Below are positions 36 to 53,450 of a DNA stretch of 64,000 nt, piece after piece. The stretch comes from Accumulibacter sp. (GTDB lineage: Bacteria > Pseudomonadota > Gammaproteobacteria > Burkholderiales > Rhodocyclaceae), in assembly GCA_031280565.1 (NCBI GenBank), contig JAITGN010000131.1, positions 7,696 through 71,695 of the forward strand, read 5' to 3'. The translations under genes were made by a program, and so were the position numbers. The notes beneath the pieces are model-generated. The model was not told the DNA's origin. It made no database searches and saw only the letters and a program-made list of their open reading frames with translations. How positions within the stretch are numbered: the first letter of the stretch is position 1; the number at the start of each line of letters is the position of its first letter.

Positions 36-647
36 ATGATGAATCTTTATTCTGGAACGACGTGTCCTTTCAGTCAGCGTTGCCGTATCGTCCTTTACGA
101 AAAAGGCATGGATTTCCAGGTGATCGACGTCGATCTTTTCGCCAGACAGGAAGATATCGCCATCATCAATCCTTATGGGCGCGTCCCGGTGCTTGTCGAA
201 CGCGATCTCATTCTGTATGAACCGAACATCATCAACGAATACATCGATGAGCGATTCCCGCATCCCCAGTTGATGCCGCCCGACCCCATCATGCGCGCCC
301 GGGCGCGGCAATTACTGATTACGATGGAACGCGAGGTTTTTTCCTACATTGATCCTCTGGAAAAGAACATGAAAACAAACCTGAAGGTGGCTGATAAAGC
401 GCGTCAGGTTGTCCGTGACCGCCTCATTGAAATGGCCCCCATTTTCATCAAGCAGAAACACATGCTGGGTGAGGAATTCTCGATGCTCGACGTAGCGATC
501 GCGCCCCTGCTCTGGCGCCTGGATTTTTACGAAATCGCTCTGCCAAGATCGGCGGCTGCCCCGCTGATGAAGTACGCTGAACGCATTTTCAGCCGTCAGG
601 GGTTCATTGAGGCGTTGACCCCTTCGGAAAAAGCCATGCGCCGGTAA
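36..647 (+). CDS. sspA: stringent starvation protein A (GST-like)
   Basis: 203-aa ORF. N-terminus LYSGTTCPFSQRCRIVLYEKG is a typical SspA thioredoxin-like GST fold. It lies directly upstream of sspB. Confidence 0.9.
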   Translation: MMNLYSGTTCPFSQRCRIVLYEKGMDFQVIDVDLFARQEDIAIINPYGRVPVLVERDLILYEPNIINEYIDERFPHPQLMPPDPIMRARARQLLITMEREVFSYIDPLEKNMKTNLKVADKARQVVRDRLIEMAPIFIKQKHMLGEEFSMLDVAIAPLLWRLDFYEIALPRSAAAPLMKYAERIFSRQGFIEALTPSEKAMRR

Positions 648-694
648 CGGCCTTATGGACGCAAGATTCCCGCCGGGCGCGAAACGCGGTCGGC

Positions 695-1090
695 ATGAGC
701 TGTAAGGAGGTTTCCGTGGATATTCCCTCGACAAAACCTTATCTGCTCCGCGCTATTCATGAATGGTGTTCCGATAATGGAATGACCCCGTATATTACTG
801 TCGCCGTCGATGCCGGCGTTCGCGTTCCGCCGGAATTTGTCCGCGACAGGCAGATTACGCTGAATATCGGTTACGACGCGACGGGTCATTTACGCATTGA
901 TAACGAGACATTATCGTTCAGCGCACGTTTTAACGGCGTCGCGCGCGAGATACTCATTCCCATCGGCAATGTCCTGGCCATTTACGCGAAAGAAAACGGA
1001 ATGGGCATGGGATTCGAGCCGGAAAAACCTCCGGCCCCTTCACCGAACGATACAGAACCTGGGCGGCCGCAGTTGCGGCGCGTCAAATGA
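695..1090 (+). CDS. sspB: ClpXP adaptor stringent starvation protein B
   Basis: 131 aa. KPYLLRAIHEWCSDNGMTPYI N-terminal domain, then a flexible Pro/Gly-rich linker and a C-terminal LRRVK ClpX-binding-type tail. Confidence 0.85.
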   Translation: MSCKEVSVDIPSTKPYLLRAIHEWCSDNGMTPYITVAVDAGVRVPPEFVRDRQITLNIGYDATGHLRIDNETLSFSARFNGVAREILIPIGNVLAIYAKENGMGMGFEPEKPPAPSPNDTEPGRPQLRRVK

Positions 1091-1345
1091 CGCGATTCTG
1101 AAAACGCACTTCTTTTTTTGGGGGAAAGAAAATAGCCCCACGCATCCCGTGCTTCCATTCGCAGGCGGAATGCGCGGGGTCTGGCCGATCTTCCCTGTTC
1201 GCGGGAAGCGCCCCTGGAACACGCTCTCCGCCCCGAATGTGTTAGTATCATCCCTCCAATCTATTACCTAACCCGTTGAACGGATGAAAACGCGCCCGGA
1301 CGTAAAGCGCCGGGAATACCGGAAATACGGCCCCGTCGCCGGCAA

Positions 1346-2671
1346 ATGATGGACCTGTTTTTTCTCGCTTTGCTTGTTCTTCTGAACGGTTTCCTCGCCA
1401 TGTCGGAAATAGCCGTGGTTTCCTCGCGGAAGTCGCGTCTGCAAAAGCTCTCCGACGACGGAAACCTGGGGGCGGAAATGGCGCTCGGCCTGAGTGGCGA
1501 GCCTTCGGGATTTCTCTCGACCATCCAGGTCGGAATCACAACCATAGGGATTTTGAGCGGCGCAATCGGCGAAGACATGTTGATCAAACCGTTAACCCTG
1601 AAAATGGCGGAGATTCCGCTTGCCGCCCCCTATGCGAAAGGTATTTCGATGACGCTTGTCGTCGTTGGATTGACCTATTTTTCGGTTGTCGTCGGCGAGC
1701 TGGTGCCCAAAAGCCTGGGCCTTCTGGCCCCGGAAAGCATTGCTTCGCGGGTCGCGGGGCCAATGGCTTTCCTGTCGAAACTGGCCTCTCCTCTCGTCTG
1801 GCTGCTTTCATCGTCGTCGAAACTGATTTTGCGCGCGATAGGGGCAAAACCTCCCGCCGAGCCGTCATTGACAGACGATGAAATCAATGTGCTGATGGAA
1901 CAGGGAGCCGAAGAGGGCGTATTTCACGAAAGCGAACAGGCCATCGTTTCCAACGTTCTCCGTCTCGACGAACAGCGCATCGTCGCGATCATGACGCATC
2001 GCAATGATATCTACACGATCGATCTCGAAGAAGCGGAAAGTGAAAAGCGGCGCTGTCTTGTCGAAGCGCCGTTTACGCGGATCGTCGTTTGCCGCGACGG
2101 GCTGGATCATGTTGTTGGCATCCTCCGGACGCCGGATATGCTCAAATGTCTGGAAGCGGGCGAAAAACTCGACATTGAGCGTTTTGTCCGCCCTCCTCTG
2201 TACATTCCTGAAGGCGTGACAACAACCCATTTACTGGAAAACTTCCGGCGAACGCGTCAACAGTGCGCGCTGGTTGTAGACGAATACGGGGAATTGCAAG
2301 GACTCGTCACGCTGACCGACGTACTGATTTCGATCGTCGGTGAACTGCCCTCTTCCGAAATGACAGACCGGCCCGAAATCCTCAAGCGCCCCGATGGTTC
2401 CTGGCTGGTCGATGGCGGCGTTTCGATTGAGCGCTTGAAGTCGATGCTGAAAATCGAAGACGATTTTCCGGGAGAAGAAGAAAACGCCTTCAACACCCTT
2501 GGCGGTCTGATTATGTTCGTCCTTGGCCGTATCCCGGTCGAAATGGATCGTGTGGAAATTCTGGGATGGGCCATCGAAGTGCTCGATATGGACAGAAACC
2601 GTGTCGATAAAGTGCTATTGACTCATATGGCGACGGAATCCGGAACGGCCCGGGGCGAAGGATTCGAATAG
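1346..2671 (+). CDS. HlyC/CorC family transporter (DUF21-CBS-CorC_HlyC architecture)
   Basis: 441 aa. Hydrophobic N-terminal DUF21-like region, a central CBS-pair-like region, and a C-terminal transporter-associated domain (EVLDMDRNRVDKV). Confidence 0.8.
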   Translation: MMDLFFLALLVLLNGFLAMSEIAVVSSRKSRLQKLSDDGNLGAEMALGLSGEPSGFLSTIQVGITTIGILSGAIGEDMLIKPLTLKMAEIPLAAPYAKGISMTLVVVGLTYFSVVVGELVPKSLGLLAPESIASRVAGPMAFLSKLASPLVWLLSSSSKLILRAIGAKPPAEPSLTDDEINVLMEQGAEEGVFHESEQAIVSNVLRLDEQRIVAIMTHRNDIYTIDLEEAESEKRRCLVEAPFTRIVVCRDGLDHVVGILRTPDMLKCLEAGEKLDIERFVRPPLYIPEGVTTTHLLENFRRTRQQCALVVDEYGELQGLVTLTDVLISIVGELPSSEMTDRPEILKRPDGSWLVDGGVSIERLKSMLKIEDDFPGEEENAFNTLGGLIMFVLGRIPVEMDRVEILGWAIEVLDMDRNRVDKVLLTHMATESGTARGEGFE

Positions 2672-2679
2672 GCGGTTTT

Positions 2680-3114
2680 ATGGAAACGAACAACATTCAG
2701 AGTATTTCGCATGTCATCCAGCTCTCTGTCGCGCCCGTTTTTCTGCTGACAGCGGTCGCGACAATGATCAACGCGATGAATACCCGCCTCGGGCGGATCG
2801 TCGACAGACTGCGTTATCTGAAAAGCTTGCCAAATCTGGACATGCCTTTGCACGATGTGGAAAAGGAACTCTTCCTGCTGGCGCGCCGGATTCGCATAAC
2901 GTATTTCGGAATGCTTTTTTCCGTGCTGTCGGGTTTGTTTGTATGCCTGGATATTGCGACAGCCTTTGTGGGCGCGTTGCTCGTGGTCGATTTTACAAAG
3001 TCGGTTGCTGTCGTTTTCATTTTCGCGATTATTTCGATGATTGTCGCGCTTGGGATGTTCCTGCGTGAAATTTCCATCGCCGTTGTCGAATCCGAGAGCG
3101 ATATCGGCCCTTAG
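2680..3114 (+). CDS. DUF2721 family membrane protein
   Basis: 144 aa. IQLSVAPVFLLTAVATMINAMNTRLGRIVDR is the characteristic DUF2721 N-terminus, and there are 3 predicted TM segments. Confidence 0.6.
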   Translation: METNNIQSISHVIQLSVAPVFLLTAVATMINAMNTRLGRIVDRLRYLKSLPNLDMPLHDVEKELFLLARRIRITYFGMLFSVLSGLFVCLDIATAFVGALLVVDFTKSVAVVFIFAIISMIVALGMFLREISIAVVESESDIGP

Positions 3115-3245
3115 CCGCCGCATCCGGCTGTTCTTATCTTGAGGTATTGAAAAACACTCGCGAAAATGCCTGGCTCGTCCCTTTGACTCATCCTGTGAAA
3201 GCAGATGCAAGTCGTTGGTTCCAGTGTGAGAAGCCGGCTTCCGTC

Positions 3246-4080
3246 TTTCCAATCCGTTCGCCCTGCTCCGTCCTGAGCTTGACGAAAGATGCGTGTCGAA
3301 GGGTAAGGACTGGAAAGGCGGAGCGTCCGTTCATACTTCGACAAGCTCAGCACGAACGGAAACAGGCGTTGTCGATGCTTCGACAGACTCAACGCAGGCG
3401 AGTTTTTAACACGCTCACCACGGATGCAAAAAAAGAATAGAGGATAAAAATAACGTTCTTAAGCCATCTTTAACCTCTTTGGGTTTTCGCAGGCATCCTT
3501 TCCAATCCCTTTGCCCTGCTCCGTCCTGAGCCTTGTCAGAGGCTCATTTTTCAATCCGTTTGCCCTGACTGTCCTGAGCTTGATGAAGGAAGCTTGTCGA
3601 AGGGTAAGGACTGGAAAGGCGGAGCGTCCGTTCATACTTCGACAGGCTCAGCACGAACGGAAACAGGTGTTGTCGGAGAATAAGGTCATTTACGGCCCGG
3701 AGCGTCTGTTCCTACTTCGACAAGTTCAGTACGAACGGAAACAGGCGTTGTCGATGCTTCGACAGACTCAATGCAGGCGAGTTTTTAACACGCTCACCAC
3801 GGATGCAAAAAACAGAATAGAGGATAAAAATAACACTCTTAAGCTATCTTTAACCTCTTTGGGTTTTCGCAAACCTCCTTCCCAATCCCTTTGCCCCTCT
3901 CCGTCCTGAGCTTGACGAAGGATGCGTATCGGAAAGCACCTTTCCAGTCCGTTCGCCCTGAGCTTGTCGAAGGGTAAGGACTGGAAAGGCGGAGCGTCTG
4001 TTCCTGCTTCGACAAGCTCAGCACGAACGGAAACAGGCGTTGTTGATGGTTCGGCAAGTCCGGTATGAACGGCGTTTTCC
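3246..4080 (+). repeat. tandem array of GC-rich hairpin repeats (about 252, 380 and 200 bp units), each unit with an AT-rich core box
   Basis: Units restart at TTTCCAATCC near 3246, 3498 and 3878. Recurring blocks include TCCGTTCATACTTCGACAAGCTCAGCACGAACGGA and ATAAAAATAACGTTCTTAAGCCATCTTTAACCTC. ORFs across the array translate to LRQAQHERK/LSLSK-type repeat peptides. Confidence 0.85.
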
Positions 4081-47408: not shown

Positions 47409-48035
47409 TCATTCCGCCTCGCGCTTCGCCAACACCTTATCGATCAGGCCATACTCCGCCGCCTCTTGCGCCGACAGGAAATTGTCCCTGTCTGTGTCGC
47501 GCTCAATACGCTCAATGGGCTGGCCTGTATGGCACGCCATGATCTCATTGAGTTTCGCGCGCAATGCAAGAATTTCTTTTGCGTGAATCGCGATATCCGA
47601 AGCCTGTCCCTGAAAGCCGCCCATTGGCTGATGGATCATCATCCGCGAATTCGGCAGCGCGAAACGTTTGCCCCTGGCCCCTGCGCACAGCAAAAAAGCG
47701 CCCATCGACGCGGCCTGACCCATGCAGAGCGTAGACACATCGGGCTTGACGAATTGCATCGTATCGTAAATCGACATTCCGGCCGACACTGACCCGCCCG
47801 GCGAATTGATATAAAACTGAATATCTTTTTCCGGATTTTCGGCCTCGAGAAAAAGAAGCTGCGCGACGACGAGATTGGCTGTCGCATCATTGACCGGCCC
47901 TACCAGAAAAATGACACGCTCTTTCAGAAGGCGCGAATAAATATCATATGCCCGCTCACCGCGGCCGCTCTGCTCTACGACCATCGGAACAAGGCCAAGC
48001 GCCTGGGGCGTGAGAGGGCCGGAACAGGAAATCAT
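47409..48035 (-). CDS. clpP: ATP-dependent Clp protease proteolytic subunit
   Basis: [28 protein letters not shown] and [11 protein letters not shown] (catalytic Ser region). Confidence 0.95.
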
Positions 48036-49429
48036 ATCGCGTCTCCACGAGATACCGGCGGAGAAGCGAAGGGACGCGTCTTCTGTCCCATCAGCTCATC
48101 GAAATCGACCGGCTGATCGACGACTGTCGCCCGCTCCAGCGCCCACGCGACAACATTGCCCTCGATGACAATCGCCTCGATATCGGCCAGGCGATCCCGC
48201 TGCGCGTAATACCAGTGGACAACCTCTTCCGGCTTTTCATAACTCTGCGCCAGTTCTTCGACTGTAGTCCGAACCTGTTCCTGGCGGGCATTCAGTCCGT
48301 TGTTTCTGACAAGCTCGGCGAGAATCAACCCCAGCCCGACGCGGCGTTTCGCCTTATCGGCAAACCACTCGGGCTTTACCGGCAAGTTCCTGACCTGAGC
48401 GCCGCCGCGTCGTTCCAGGTCTTCAATGGCCGCCTGCATCAATCCCTGCGTTTCCATTTCGATCAGGGCATTCGGAATATCGAGCGGCGTCGCCTTGAGC
48501 AGCGCGTCCATCACTTGTTCCTTGGTGCGTTCCTGCAAACGTTTCTTGACCTCGCGCTTCAAATTGGCCTCGATTTCCGCGCGCATCGCATTGACATCAC
48601 CATTGCCGATGCCCAGCGCTTTCGCGAACGCGTCATCAAGTTCCGGCAACACCGGCTGGCGCGTTTCCTTGAGCGTGATATCGAAAGTCACCGTTTGACC
48701 TTCCAGCTCTTTCGCAAAATACTTTTCGGGGAAAGTAATTTCGGAAGAGCGTATTTCCCCTGCCTTCAGGCCAATCATCGCTTTTTCGAATTCCGGAAGC
48801 ATCGCTCCTTCACCGACGATGAATACCGCGTCTTTCGATTCACCGCCCGGGAAAGGCTCGCCATTCTTCTTGCCGAAGAAATCGATCTTCACTTGATCGC
48901 CCATCTGAACCGGACGGTCGGCAAGATCGTAGCGGATACGCTGCTTGCGCAGGATTTCCAGGGTTTTATCCACCTCGGCCTGTCCGATTTCCAGCACGGG
49001 ACGGGATATCTCGATGCCCGTCAAATCCCCCGGCTTGACCTCTGGAAAGACCTCAAAGACAGCGGAAAATTCAAGATGCGCCGGATTTTCGGCGTCACCC
49101 GTTTCTTTCCGGGCGATTTTCGGATACCCCGCCACGCGGAGATTTTGCGCGTTTACCGCCTCGCCGAAAGCTTTCTCAAGCGCGGCGTTTAATGCCTCAT
49201 GATGCGCCTGCTCTCCATACTGCTGACGCACGATTTTTTCCGGCACTTTGCCGGGCCGGAATCCCGGCAATTTCAGTGTTTTTCCAATGCGTTTCAGGCG
49301 CAGGACGATATCCTTTTCAAGATCGTCGCTAGCCACCGAAAGGTCAATGCAGCGCTCGAGAGCGCTGGGCGTTCGCGCTTCCGGCAGCGTCCCGGTTTTA
49401 TCATTCTCCGTCAGCTTTGTTTCTTCCAT
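48032..49429 (-). CDS. tig: trigger factor
   Basis: [17 protein letters not shown] ribosome-binding region and a central FKBP-like domain. It sits upstream of clpP. Confidence 0.9.
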
Positions 49430-49492: not shown

Positions 49493-49577
49493 TGGTGCGA
49501 GAGAAGGGACTCGAACCCCCACGCCTCGCGGCGCTGGAACCTAAATCCAGTGCGTCTACCTATTCCGCCACTCTCGC
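49493..49577 (-). tRNA. tRNA-Leu (anticodon TAG)
   Basis: Reverse complement GCGAGAGTGGCGGAATAGGTAG...CTGGATTTAGGTTCCAG, a long variable arm, then GGTTCGAGTCCCTTCTCTCGCACCA. Confidence 0.9.
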
Positions 49578-49623
49578 AGCCAATCCGCAATTTTAACTGA
49601 AGACGAAGGCCGGATTATACCTT

Positions 49624-50430
49624 TTGTCCGGAACAGGGTTGCGAAATGCCTTAAAAACAAGGCACGTCCAAGGAAACAACGCCAGCCCCGCGTCCGTTCC
49701 GCAAAGTCTGGAGGAATTCATCGCGGCGGGCCGGAAGATTACGGAAAGCCTGCCGGAAGAGCCCGGAGCGCTCTACGGGGAACTCACCCAACGCTTGCGC
49801 GACGACGTGGGAACGGGTCTGGAAGCTACGGTGTCAAGCAAAGGCGCGGGGGCCGTACTGGTGCGGGCCGCGTCTGCCCAGTATCCGCGCGCCTGGGTCG
49901 AAGCGGCCAATGCGTTCGGGCCGTTATACGCGCGGCTGACGGGCGCGAATGGTCGCGGCTGGCATACAAGCATCAGCGATCCGGCCCTGATTGGAAAAAC
50001 GACCCGGCTTTCGGACTTCGGCGTAGTCACCATCAGGAAAAACGCCGGTTATCTTGCGGTTCGGTGGGAGGATATTCCCAACGCGATCCACGAATACGCG
50101 CACCGGCTGCAAAGCGCACTGCCGGGCCTTCAGGCGAAATTCATGGAAATGCACCGGCGGCGGACGCGGGGCGAAGCCTTGCAAAGCCTGAAGGTGCTGG
50201 AACCAAAATCCCGCTATAGGCACGATGAAATGACGCGAAAGGATCATTACATTGAGGCTTACTGGGGCAAGGAGTATGATGGTACACCGCTGGAAGTCAT
50301 GACAATGGCGATGCAAACCATGCTCTCCGGAAGGCGTTGGGAGAAGGGCCGTTTGTTCCGAAAACTTTATACTGAGGATCGGGAAATGTTCGATTTCATT
50401 GTGGGATTGTTGTTCCACTGGAGACCGTGA
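49624..50430 (+). CDS. HExxH-motif protein (possible zincin-like domain; possibly the C-terminal part of a larger phage protein)
   Basis: 268-aa ORF with a TTG start. HEYAH is at 50089-50103. The first about 15 codons overlap a GCCTTAAAAACA box-X-like sequence, so the true 5' end is uncertain. Confidence 0.5.
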   Translation: MSGTGLRNALKTRHVQGNNASPASVPQSLEEFIAAGRKITESLPEEPGALYGELTQRLRDDVGTGLEATVSSKGAGAVLVRAASAQYPRAWVEAANAFGPLYARLTGANGRGWHTSISDPALIGKTTRLSDFGVVTIRKNAGYLAVRWEDIPNAIHEYAHRLQSALPGLQAKFMEMHRRRTRGEALQSLKVLEPKSRYRHDEMTRKDHYIEAYWGKEYDGTPLEVMTMAMQTMLSGRRWEKGRLFRKLYTEDREMFDFIVGLLFHWRP

Positions 50431-50762
50431 CCGTGTTACATCATTTCGACTGTGCTCCGACCTCGGGGAACCCGAAAGCTCAATCCCTTGTCTTTGATTG
50501 GGACGATGAGACCGGGGAGATTTCCGGCCGGGATGTTGCCCATGTGCACGAATGTTTTGAAGGCAAAACCATTTCGGCGCACCCGATGCCGTGTTCATGG
50601 ACATTGACCTCGCCCAAAAACCGGACGGACATCGCCGCGATTGTCGGGAGACACTGGCATCTCCCGCCCGAACTCGCCGATTTTTATCCGGAACTGGGCG
50701 ACGATTGGGACGGCGTTATCCGCGACGAGGCAGGCAACGTCATTGGGCACGCCCAATTCTGA
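50427..50762 (+). CDS. small acidic protein coupled to the HExxH ORF (immunity-like by position)
   Basis: 111 aa. GTGA overlap with the upstream stop, and its own stop overlaps the gpG-like ATG (TGATG). Confidence 0.45.
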   Translation: MTVLHHFDCAPTSGNPKAQSLVFDWDDETGEISGRDVAHVHECFEGKTISAHPMPCSWTLTSPKNRTDIAAIVGRHWHLPPELADFYPELGDDWDGVIRDEAGNVIGHAQF

Positions 50763-50842
50763 TGATCGAAATCAAGGCCGACACTCAAAAAGTCACCGCC
50801 GCGCTGGGGCGCTTGGCGGAGGGCGTATGGACACCGCGTTGA
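50762..50842 (+). pseudogene. gpG-like virion morphogenesis gene, 5' fragment 1 (26 codons)
   Basis: MIEIKADTQKVTAALGRLAEGV then a stop. It is identical to copy 3 over the first about 44 nt apart from the start codon. Confidence 0.6.
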
Positions 50843-51071
50843 CCGGATCATCGGGAAAAGTAAAAAAAGAGGGTACGCCAGCGCAGAACCAGCCTTTGTC
50901 GAGGCCATAGAAAAGGACAAAAAGTCGCTGATCGCCGCGGGGGGGCATGGGCGCGAGGGCAAGCCCACCACCGCGCGCCGCGACCAGCTCAAAGCCGCCG
51001 ACGAGAGGTCAAGCAAAGAATTTCTGGCTGCGACAGACAAAGAAAGCTGGCTGGCCGCGCGTTACAAGGCC

Positions 51072-51509
51072 GTGGGGCTGGATTACGCACAAGCGCGGGA
51101 AGCTGTCGAAAAACACGCTGTTTTTCCGCACACATTGCAAGGCGTCGCCAAGGCAGACCGCTACCGCCGGATCGTTGTCGCCATCGAAAACAGAGACGCC
51201 CAGAGCATGATGGACGCCTTGATGGGCAAAATAGAAAATCGCAAGGAACGAGTTGAGAACTTTAACAAAGGCCAACTCGTCAACCTGTCCGACCTGTTCG
51301 GCAGTGTGACATCGAACAAGGTTGCCGGTTGGAATAAAAGCGGCGCTGGCCACTCGGATTCGTATTATCGCCGTGGGCGATTTATGCGGGGACTGGAAAC
51401 CTTTGCCGATCTCTTTGACATTCATGGTGGAAATGATTTATTTTGGCGAGATATCGTCGAACGCCTGATGCCTGAAACGAGCCGGGCTTTTTGGGAGCTG
51501 CTGAAATGA
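51072..51509 (+). CDS. hypothetical protein; the frame is open from 50766 without a start codon (possible orphan C-terminal module)
   Basis: The listed ORF starts at the GTG at 51072. The same frame reads through from 50766 (..YASAEPAFVEAIEKDKKSLIAAGGHGREGKPTTARRDQLKAADERSSKEFLAATDKESWLAARYKA-VGLDY..) with coding-like composition. Confidence 0.4.
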   Translation: MGLDYAQAREAVEKHAVFPHTLQGVAKADRYRRIVVAIENRDAQSMMDALMGKIENRKERVENFNKGQLVNLSDLFGSVTSNKVAGWNKSGAGHSDSYYRRGRFMRGLETFADLFDIHGGNDLFWRDIVERLMPETSRAFWELLK

Positions 51510-51742
51510 TTTCAAAAGAACGTATTGCGGCGGAAGTGGATTACTGCGAAAAGTTCAACGTTTCGCCACCTTTTACTTGGGCTGGGCTGGCCATTCCGGA
51601 TGAGGTCATGATCCCGGCACTTCGAAACGCAATCGCGCGGGGGCGCGCACTTAGCGAATCGGAAGGGAACCAGATTGAGCATGAGCTTTGGCCTGACACC
51701 TTTAACGCGGACGGCAGTACGGTAGGTGGCATCCTGGTCTGA
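51506..51742 (+). CDS. small protein coupled to the preceding frame (immunity-like by position)
   Basis: 78 aa from MISKERIAAEV. ATGA overlap with the upstream stop. Its stop lies 2 nt before gpG-like copy 2. Confidence 0.4.
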   Translation: MISKERIAAEVDYCEKFNVSPPFTWAGLAIPDEVMIPALRNAIARGRALSESEGNQIEHELWPDTFNADGSTVGGILV

Positions 51743-51744
51743 CC

Positions 51745-51837
51745 ATGATCGAAATCAAGGCCGAAACCGAGAAAGTCACCGCCGCGCTTGAGCGCTTGGC
51801 GGAGGGCGTGAGTCCCAGCCACGGCATCGCGCATTAA
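51745..51837 (+). pseudogene. gpG-like virion morphogenesis gene, 5' fragment 2 (30 codons)
   Basis: MIEIKAETEKVTAALERLAEGV, then divergence and a stop. Confidence 0.6.
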
Positions 51838-51921
51838 TGCTGCTCTGGCCTTCCCGGCCAGCTTTGAGGTGGTTCGCGCTGTCATGGCCGCATTCGGAAA
51901 TAAGAGGGCGAAGAGGACACG

Positions 51922-52182
51922 ATGAAACTATTCATGTCAGTATTGACCGATGGCTCAATTCGGTTCCGAAGTCGGCTTGAACTCCCCTACTATAGCGGCT
52001 CTCTCATTCTGGAAAGCCCTCCAGGGAAGTCGTTTTGCGGCCTCCCTTATTCCGAGGCAATCCAGTATGCATGGATTGAGACGGATGATGAGGGGAGTTT
52101 TATTTGTGGCGAAAAGCAACGGCCGCGCGATCCGGACACGCCATTTGAAAATCCCCCGTTTTTGCGGCAAGAAAAGCCGTGA
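51922..52182 (+). CDS. small hypothetical protein directly upstream of gpG-like copy 3
   Basis: 86 aa with an AAGAGG-type RBS upstream. GTGA overlap with the gpG-like start. Confidence 0.4.
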   Translation: MKLFMSVLTDGSIRFRSRLELPYYSGSLILESPPGKSFCGLPYSEAIQYAWIETDDEGSFICGEKQRPRDPDTPFENPPFLRQEKP

Positions 52183-52478
52183 TCGAAATCAAGGCCGACA
52201 CTCAAAAAGTCACCGCCGCGCTTGAGCGTCTGGCGGACGGGGCGACTCCGGCAGGAATCAAAACGACGCTGATGAAAATTGGGCAGGAACTAGTGGAATC
52301 AACCCATGCGCGCTTTGTTTCCAAGACCAGTCCGGACGGAACGCGCTGGGATGCGAACGCGCCCGCGACGCAAAAGCTCAAGGGACGTGATAATCCGCTG
52401 GTGGAGACGGGAGGGGGTCGAGGGACTTTAGTTATCAGGTGGAAGGTGAAATTAAAAACACGCCTCCCCGTTTCATAA
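52179..52478 (+). pseudogene. gpG-like phage virion morphogenesis protein, N-terminal about 80 codons, 3'-truncated
   Basis: MIEIKADTQKVTAALERLADGATPAGIKTTLMKIGQELVESTHARFVSKTSPDGTRWDANAPATQKLKGRDNPLVETG fits the Mu G / tail-completion S family pattern. Similarity ends near 52415, where the AT-rich element begins. Confidence 0.6.
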
Positions 52479-52730
52479 TATAAACAAACGTTTTCCAAGC
52501 ATTTTATTCGAAAATCAAATGCAATATCCGTTAAGAACGTCATCAGCTATTTTATAGATCGCCATAATTCGGCCTGTTTTAACAGTAAAATCGCTTGAGA
52601 ACGTTTGTCAGTTTTCGTGCTATAACGATTTCTTTTGAAAATTTTCGTAACTATCAAGAAATCATGGGTGTTTCATTGAAACGATTCTGGAATAATTTCG
52701 CGTTTTCAGATTTTTTAAAAAATGCCCTGT
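52440..52730 (+). repeat. AT-rich element copy E
   Basis: Box X copies start at 52488 (reverse), 52529 and 52593. Box Y GATTCTGGAATAATTT is at 52683-52698. Confidence 0.6.
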
Positions 52731-53450
52731 CTATACGCGACGGGGTGGTGATTCCCGAAAATAGCGCGTCGGATCGGGGATTCCGGCACTCAAGAAACCT
52801 TCCCGTCGCAGACGGCAGGAATCGCAAACGCCGCACGCGCGGCCATCGGCGTCGGCCCGGTAACACGAGAGCGTTATTCCGTAGTCGACGCCCAGCGCTT
52901 TGCCACGGGAGATGATTTCGGCTTTCGAGAGCTTGATCAACGGCGCGTGAATCGTCATCCGGTTGCCTTCGACCCCTGTTTTTGTCGCAAGATTGGCCAG
53001 TTTTTCAAACGCTGCGACATATTCCGGACGGCAATCCGGATAGCCGGAATAATCGACAGCGTTGACGCCGATGAAAATGTCACGGCTTTCCAGAGTTTCC
53101 GCCCAGGCCAGCGCCAATGAGAGCATGATTGTGTTGCGCGCGGGAACGTATGTCGCCGGAATTCCCGGACGGATGCCTTCTGTTGGAACATCAATCGCGT
53201 CATCGGTCAGAGCCGATCCGCCAAAATCCCTCAGAGACAGGCGGAAAATCCGGTGTTCCCGGGCGTCCAGCATCCGGGCGACACGAACCGCCGCGTCGAG
53301 TTCAACTCGATGGCGCTGACCGTAGTCCAGCGAGAGGCAATGACAGTCGAAACCGGTTTCGCGGGCAATAGCCAGCGCGGTGGCTGAATCGAGTCCGCCG
53401 GAAAGCAGAATTACGGCGCGCGGACGATGGAATGAAAGGCTTGTAGTCAT
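52731..53450 (-). CDS. queC: 7-cyano-7-deazaguanine synthase
   Basis: PP-loop [10 protein letters not shown] and C-terminal zinc-binding Cys cluster [10 protein letters not shown]. Confidence 0.9.

Follow-up and report, generated by a model that had tools for sequence, protein, structure and literature searches.

We analysed a 64,000-nt stretch of Accumulibacter sp. DNA (contig JAITGN010000131.1, positions 7,696 to 71,695; hereafter the window), in which a 2.9-kb scrap of phage-related sequence (the island, ~49600-52415) lies between two housekeeping gene blocks. The island is probably the last piece of the head module of a Mu-like prophage, derived from the boundary between the head gene muF and gene G. 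In this reading it carries a stack of displaced cassettes, each made of a C-terminal (CT) domain of MuF and a small partner open reading frame (ORF), in which zincin-type effectors (CT1 to CT3) would be paired with cognate inhibitors (imm1 to imm3).

Triplicated 5' end of gene G and the three cassettes

The anatomy of the island was read directly from its sequence. A repeat search detected a 73-nt block in three direct copies (50760-50832, 51743-51815 and 52177-52249; 84-85% identity to copy 2), which bears out an earlier note on this DNA, made from the letters alone, that had placed the copies at 50762, 51745 and 52179. Within the island (3.4-kb query), blastn aligned copies 1 and 2 at 91% identity over 65 nt (E 6e-20), copies 1 and 3 at 92% over 61 nt (E 8e-19), and copies 2 and 3 at 85% over 73 nt (E 3e-17). 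Copies 1 and 3 were 100% identical over 43 nt, in line with the ~44 nearly identical nucleotides described earlier.

All three copies lie on the plus strand. Copy 1 (50760-50842) opens with ATG 50762, is G-derived to ~50826 and reaches a stop at 50840-50842 after 26 codons; copy 2 (51743-51837) opens with ATG 51745, is G-derived to ~51815 and comprises 30 codons, both codon counts being those of the earlier note. Counted from the start codon, the G-derived parts of these two copies extend for 65 and 71 nt, a difference of 6 nt. Copy 3 (52177-52478), starting at GTG 52179, alone continues into the N-terminal half of a gpG-like protein, as had been proposed. Its ORF has 99 codons, of which the first 78, to position 52412, resemble full-length G proteins; what follows is unrelated read-through to the stop at 52476-52478. 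This copy matched Phage_tail_S (PF05069; E 1.9e-9, 38 bits, cut-off 24.3) and PHROG 26 'tail completion/Neck1' (E 1.6e-14). Against TIGR01635 it scored 31 bits, and the truncation of the gene accounts for its falling short of the cut-off (37.65). By homology, the repeated block stems from the 5' end of a Mu G-type gene. Within the Mu gpG / P2 gpS family (PF05069, TIGR01635), the N-terminal 60-78 residues are matched by copy 3, which differs from the family in being cut at codon 78 of ~150; copies 1 and 2 are fragments of 22-24 codons. A 41-nt part of the block, used as a DNA pattern, had no match in metagenome and viral contigs. The 79-aa G fragment had none in genome contigs, metagenome contigs or GenBank phages, and therefore neither a close relative of this G nor a strain variant of the array was obtained.

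Each G copy closes a cassette consisting of a small ORF and, upstream of it, a larger frame, all on the plus strand. In cassette 1, the large frame (49597-50427; feature table end 50430) covers a complete CT1 domain with the motif HEYAHRLQ intact. It has neither a MuF N-domain nor the linker GWxYxPG...KLP; its first possible start is TTG 49624, and protein homology begins at ~49630-49690. The frame overlaps imm1 (50427..50762; full-length, ~110 aa; start GTG 50427 or 50433) by GTGA, and imm1 overlaps G copy 1 by TGATG. In cassette 2, Delta-CT2 (50814..51509) is a 5'-truncated domain with no start codon at its 5' end; its frame is free of stops as far back as 50766 and so overlaps G copy 1, which is read in a different frame. 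It overlaps imm2 (51506..51742; full-length, 78 aa; GGGAG 8 nt upstream) by ATGA, and 2 nt separate imm2 from G copy 2. In cassette 3, a frame whose last 36 codons (51812-51922; feature table 51816..51925) are too short to search, and which is therefore presumed by position only to be a Delta-CT3 stub, overlaps imm3 (51922..52182; 86 aa, in the partner position; GAGGA 4 nt upstream) by ATGA; imm3 overlaps G copy 3 by GTGA. The earlier note had all of these overlaps and gaps right for the junctions that it listed. It had seen a larger upstream frame in cassettes 1 and 2 and missed the stub of cassette 3. Along the array, by sequence comparison, the CTs are progressively truncated from the 5' side: CT1 is complete, CT2 is cut in its HExxH motif and CT3 is a 36-codon stub.

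The sequence of the join between G copy 1 and Delta-CT2 was also observed directly. Delta-CT2 reads WRRAYGHRVD where its full-length relatives read WRHE[YF]GHxxD. At the DNA level, the relatives have TGG CGG CAY GAG TAY GGN CAY and the window (50814-50834) has TGG CGG AGG GCG TAT GGA CAC, while G copies 2 and 3 have T(T/C)TGGCGGA(G/C)GGGCG and have the AGGGCGT of the junction in common. The sequence is G-derived to ~50826 and CT2-derived from ~50827, so that G-block sequence stands in place of the H-E codons of the CT2 catalytic motif, and Delta-CT2 and the G fragment are in different frames. The CT2 and G parents share TGGCGG and scattered bases at this point, and the join fits microhomology-guided illegitimate recombination. 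Near the other end of Delta-CT2, a promoter-like site (51415-51444, plus strand; TTGACA-18-TATTTT, 10/12 matches) was noticed, inside its 3' end and ~60 nt 5' of imm2.

Gene order and exchange of C-terminal domains in relatives

The profile searches proposed in the earlier note were run and found both the gpG and the MuF homology; they also agree with its view that the large frames are C-termini of MuF proteins. Database proteins matched CT1 over their C-terminal ~240 aa (40-54% identity), and one of them (P0007) carries the MuF domain PF04233 upstream. In a profile scan of IMG/VR, the CT1 domain ended 500-730-aa ORFs at 24 loci, and PF04233 was present in the N-terminal part of all three ORFs tested. 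An exhaustive HMMER search returned 106 relatives of CT2; in almost all of them, the match formed the extreme C-terminus of a 530-920-aa protein, and eight of the ten CT2-type proteins tested had PF04233. Two individual relatives showed peculiarities. A 346-aa relative of CT1 (P0009) has HELAN in place of HExxH and has probably lost its second metal ligand. In a 920-aa CT2-type MuF (P0055), a weak match to Intein_splicing (PF14890, 23.4 bits, cut-off 35.8) lies between the MuF domain and the CT.

Gene order in the relatives was directly observed as well. One locus (L005) has, after a CT2-type C-terminus, an 80-aa imm2 homologue, then a 151-aa Phage_tail_S gene and a Mu-type protease I gene. 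In IMG/VR, the CT1-type genes (24 loci) are followed by ORFs of 97-122 aa with the motif FDWDxETG...HPxP of the imm1 family, and the CT2-type genes (32 loci) by ORFs of 59-76 aa with the motif Y..KFG..PP of the imm2 family. The family of the small ORF co-varies with that of the CT, imm1 with CT1 and imm2 with CT2. An imm1 homologue lies directly 3' of CT1-type genes at L002, L003, L075-L077 and most IMG/VR loci, and an imm2 homologue 3' of CT2-type genes at L004, L005 and IMG/VR loci. Gene G was found at 30 loci, at 23 of which it stands immediately 3' of the small ORF. Judging from these sequences, MuF-CT, small ORF, G is the normal arrangement in this group of phages, with G usually directly next. 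The order and the profile matches of copy 3 together uphold the earlier suggestion that the retained block is the beginning of the gene downstream. On some Mu-like contigs (L010, L017, L022 and L041-L044), G does not adjoin the small ORF and lies 2.5-4.2 kb farther downstream; adjacency of muF, small ORF and G is therefore common and not universal. The intervening late genes on these contigs appear to be scaffold and capsid genes.

The modularity of these proteins is evident from their alignment. When CT1-type and CT2-type proteins were compared with hhalign, only a 61-column linker aligned (probability 97%), namely ...PGIDxGWxYxPGA...AEKxxKLP, which stands just ahead of the variable domain. 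A third kind of C-terminus (CTx) follows the same linker on metagenome contig L075 (JGI 3300042616; 521-3820), where the N-terminal part of MuF is 54% identical to that of two CT2-type proteins (P0016 and P0017) up to KLP and diverges thereafter. The muF gene of this contig (421 aa, PF04233, CTx) is followed by an N6/N4 DNA methylase gene and then by a displaced module, in which a second, 88%-identical copy of 228 nt of the muF linker region is fused to a CT1-type domain with an imm1-type ORF. By its sequence organisation, this is a classical displaced MuF-CT orphan of the form known from cdiA and rhs loci. Displacement thus occurs in this MuF family, as L075 shows.

Lone modules were found beside housekeeping genes in related metagenome-assembled genomes (MAGs) or metagenomes. 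One (L002, 8601-10018) comprises the linker, CT1 and imm1 and adjoins urease/ABC genes. Another (L004, 9923-11163) lies near dnaJ and comprises a truncated CT2, cut ~10 residues after the HExGHxxD motif, imm2 and an Aca2/YdiL-like helix-turn-helix ORF.

We also considered whether CT1 belongs to the Ct_MAD family and judged this unlikely from a by-eye comparison with nodes 127-148 of the Ct_MAD hidden Markov model. The consensus of these nodes, vaealaaagiapqsavialsdd, matches 'VEAATQVGYAPQTAEMAIRDND' in the MuF protein of L075; they hold no HExxH and look like neither CT1 nor CT2. Since this part of the model resembles CTx, CT1 and CT2 are probably not Ct_MAD.

Origin and function of the cassettes

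The CT domains look like zincin-type (HExxH) peptidases. In CT1, H135, E136 and H139 of the motif HExxH(R)LQ are invariant in nine of ten sequences, together with several invariant Glu downstream; relatives of CT2 carry WRHExGHxxD, from which the window copy has lost H-E. The HExGHxxD of the CT2 type fits the phage clade of metallopeptidase (MPTase) domains in polyvalent proteins (PMC5512222), with which these relatives share an Asp three residues past HExxH and a conserved upstream His (WHDA). AlphaFold2 models were confident (pLDDT 93.5 for CT1 and 88 for CT2). In BFVD, the CT1 model matched predicted structures of phage proteins of the 'head morphogenesis' and 'large polyvalent protein-associated' kinds (E 6e-8 to 4e-4) and, weakly, zincin/SprT entries. 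Searches of Pfam, NCBIfam and PADLOC returned no significant family for CT1, CT2 or any of the three small ORFs; the sole Pfam toxin match, Ntox50, was rejected (E 0.26).

From their motifs and context, the CTs could be virion-delivered effectors or processing peptidases. MuF-fused effectors are established (PMC3482391, PMC5576092, PMC5512222), as are MuF toxins with small downstream ORFs (PMC5576092, PMC3482391). In these cassettes, we infer toxicity and immunity, as well as any present-day expression, from sequence and context. Among the small ORFs, imm1 and imm2 have their full length and retain the motifs of their families (for imm1, F(D/E)WDxETGxxxG...HPxP) while the CTs decay, and imm2 and imm3 are preceded by Shine-Dalgarno-like sequences. 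Three intact small ORFs next to decayed CT2 and CT3 suggest that the small ORFs are what is retained.

We infer the following order of events. The ancestral muF would have been of the normal type, with an N-terminal MuF domain, the conserved linker GWxYxPG...KLP and an exchangeable C-terminal enzyme domain, followed by the cognate small ORF. New modules of CT and partner would then have arrived twice from related phages, each together with ~65-71 nt from the start of its own G. The left join of each incoming module would have been anchored in the conserved part of muF, and the right join would have been illegitimate, guided by microhomology and placed inside the resident CT. Each event would decapitate the resident CT and spare its partner gene and G, giving the order [CT1-imm1-G'] [dCT2-imm2-G'] [ddCT3-imm3-G], with cassette 3 as the oldest and cassette 1 as the last to be fused to MuF. 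Later deletions would have removed muF upstream, stopping at the promoter of a tRNA-Leu gene, and all of G after codon 78. The CTs would have been carried in the virion by MuF as zincin-type peptidase-like effectors, with the small ORFs encoding their cognate inhibitors or immunity proteins, and of the whole island only these intact small ORFs would probably still function.

Several observations weigh against this reading. Random illegitimate joins do not predict the near-coincidence of the two G' break points (65/71 nt). A duplicated 5' end of G is apparently rare, as none of the 30 other Mu-like loci carries one. Searches of PDB by sequence and with Foldseek by fold gave nothing significant for CT1 or CT2; the best PDB neighbour by geometry was anthrax lethal factor (TM 0.37, E 1.3, not significant). 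MPTase domains of polyvalent proteins have been proposed to act in autoprocessing or against the host (PMC5512222), and the CTs may be self-processing domains instead of toxins. The CT1 and CT2 families are widespread and moderately conserved in Mu-like phages, and could therefore be ordinary parts of the head module. Because the window has no full-length muF, the array is not tied to an active toxin gene. Finally, imm3 has no homologue in an index of 5.8 billion proteins, IMG/VR or GenBank phages, and cassette 3 is therefore assigned by position alone.

The main alternative, which we regard as unlikely, is that the island is functionless debris. The CTs would then be ordinary, non-toxic modules of a head protein (e.g., self-processing MPTases) and the small ORFs assembly partners, and the island would be a scar of mosaic recombination and decay that is under no selection today. 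The proposed autoprocessing of MPTase domains speaks for this, as do the abundance of the CT1 and CT2 families in phage contigs, the absence of a significant toxin or immunity family match, and the clear death of CT2 and CT3. Against it, CT1 and all three small ORFs are intact although the rest of the prophage is gone, and similar minimal remnants of CT and partner recur beside housekeeping genes at L002 and L004. Moreover, the co-variation of CT and partner and the exchange of CTs at a fixed linker form the pattern of polymorphic toxins.

A very unlikely alternative is that the island persists as an addiction module, in which a free, active 268-aa peptidase, CT1, is still made from TTG 49624 and restrained by imm1, loss of the island kills the cell, and cassettes 2 and 3 are passengers. 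CT1 is indeed complete with HEYAH intact, it is coupled to imm1 by the GTGA overlap, and the same lone pair was kept at L002. Yet no recognisable ribosome-binding site or promoter precedes TTG 49624, where the sequence is that of a tRNA promoter on the other strand; neither ATG nor GTG offers a start in the N-terminal part of the CT1 domain or ahead of it; and the intactness of imm2 and imm3 would be left unexplained.

The structure of the repeat was compared with an independent assembly, the Logan unitigs of run SRR14710902 (k=31 graph). Unitigs span 49548-50792 and 50776-52209 and break only at the 43-44-nt stretch common to copies 1 and 3, as is expected because a real short repeat yields exactly that in a k=31 graph; copy 2 is crossed. 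The path from G copy 1 into copy 3, which takes in CT2, imm2, copy 2, the stub and imm3, lies on a single unbroken unitig. The unitigs are thus consistent with a real repeat, and it is extremely unlikely that the triplication is an artefact, produced when reads of several Mu-like phages that occurred together were collapsed or chained in a metagenome bin: the source is apparently a Rhodocyclales MAG and the unitigs do break at copies 1 and 3, but the identical stretch of just 43-44 nt is shorter than a read, the copies differ by 8-15%, a single unitig connects copy 1 to copy 3, chromosomal genes flank the island on both sides of one contig, and the alternative resolution of the graph is an implausible 1.4-kb circle.

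Genomic setting and relation to known systems

To the left of the island lie clpP (47409-48035) and tig (48032-49429), both on the minus strand, followed by a tRNA-Leu(tag) gene as the immediate neighbour (49493..49577, minus strand; ARAGORN, Rfam 55 bits). The nearest Tig proteins are those of Accumulibacter and Propionivibrio MAGs. To the right lies queC (52731-53450), followed by queE and cpoB. An Rfam scan detected tRNA only, and tblastn found neither a MuF N-domain nor another Mu-like gene elsewhere in the 64-kb window, in agreement with the earlier note.

At the left edge, protein homology to the region preceding the CT fades between 49630 and 49690. The -10 box of the tRNA-Leu (TAAAAT, 49595-49590, minus strand) is conserved in a related MAG (L063), whose homology 5' of the tRNA reaches ~49601 and then ends; the deletion that removed muF would therefore have stopped at the tRNA-Leu promoter. 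A perfect TATAAT was also seen on the minus strand at 49619-49614, at or just inside the edge of the island. No uninterrupted empty site was found, as the relatives keep the order tRNA-Leu-tig-clpP and differ 5' of the tRNA. In L063, the closest MAG, the DNA 5' of the tRNA-Leu (1-330), read by eye, seems to hold a gene for a QueF-like protein, oriented oppositely. The window has queC-queE where L063 has this gene; synteny breaks at the tRNA, and both sides would belong to the queuosine pathway. Integration targeted to the tRNA was considered and set aside, since the island is on the 5' (promoter) side of the tRNA and neither an integrase nor an att repeat was seen. Mu-like phages transpose and are not known to integrate at tRNAs.

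At the right edge, a spacer without strand assignment (52420..52730) separates the truncated G from the 3' end of queC. According to the earlier note, an AT-rich repeat element cuts copy 3 near 52415. The cut (52412) and the AT-rich composition (GC ~0.35) stand; the repeat does not, as blastn found no second copy of the stretch in the window. Within the spacer, a weak, imperfect 34-nt inverted repeat (52484-52608; 71% complementary, arms 57 nt apart) was noticed, which occurs once in the window and is without a match in Rfam.

Polymorphic toxins of the MuF type and orphan arrays of other toxin families are already known, and the retention of the G 5' end is a variant of that known pattern. With MuF polymorphic toxins (PMC3482391, PMC5576092), the island and its relatives share variable C-terminal domains on the MuF head protein, for which a metallopeptidase class has been reported (PMC3482391, PMC5576092). 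They also share a small ORF of <150 aa directly 3' that is specific to the CT type (imm1 ~110, imm2 78 and imm3 86 aa), a location in the head/packaging module, and exchange of the C-terminal domain after a conserved region, as seen in the linker-only alignment and the third CT of L075. They differ in that the window frames lack the PF04233 domain that full-length CT1 and CT2 homologues possess, that three modules are stacked, and that CT1 and CT2 match no Pfam toxin family.

The orphan arrays of cdiA, rhs and mafB likewise consist of tandem, different, 5'-truncated modules of CT and immunity gene that are read as displaced by incoming cassettes, with the immunity genes intact. In those arrays, the orphans still have part of the conserved region that precedes the CT of the toxin, and they lie 3' of a full-length toxin gene, whereas the array in the window keeps the 5' end of the downstream G, has no linker and has lost its parent gene. 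The upstream homology typical of cdiA/rhs is present in L075 and absent from the window cassettes. We found no description of such a downstream-gene anchor for other orphan arrays. With the zincin-like MPTases of polyvalent proteins, the cassettes share HExxH domains fused to MuF and other virion proteins, and the CT1 model matches proteins of this kind; however, neither cognate small partner genes nor stacks of cassettes were described in that work (PMC5512222), and the similarity of the CT models to the folds of solved zincins is not significant. In the literature searched, the coverage of which was incomplete, we found no report of orphan stacks of the MuF family, and the words orphan, displaced and recombination are all absent from the text of PMC5576092.

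That study left open whether C-terminal extensions of proteobacterial MuF proteins without a known domain are toxins (PMC5576092). The window, together with L075, L002 and L004, indicates that two such extensions behave as polymorphic-toxin cassettes, with a fixed demarcation linker, a cognate partner, displacement, and chromosomal remnants of CT and partner. It suggests an exchange and stacking of phage-delivered MuF effector domains comparable to what is known from orphan toxin/immunity arrays in other bacterial toxin families. A wider generalisation seems to us somewhat unlikely: the MuF effector domains of proteobacterial Mu-like phages would form a true polymorphic-toxin system whose cassettes are exchanged by means of two homology anchors, with the muF linker on the upstream side and ~70 nt from the beginning of G on the downstream side, and bacteria would keep stacks of immunity genes as chromosomal 'immunity islands' after loss of the prophage, protected by them against zincin effectors from related phages of the community. 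In that case, a preferred site of recombination, or selection for toxins that have been disarmed, would lie behind the near-coincident break points of G' (65/71 nt) and the repeated cutting of CT2 at its catalytic motif, in the window and in L004.

The locus supplies concrete candidate pairs, CT1/imm1 and CT2-type/imm2, with a defined catalytic motif. An anchor in the downstream gene would matter for how orphan cassettes are searched for. Should the small ORFs prove to confer immunity, relics of this kind would record past encounters with phages and might form a layer of protection against effectors delivered by virions.

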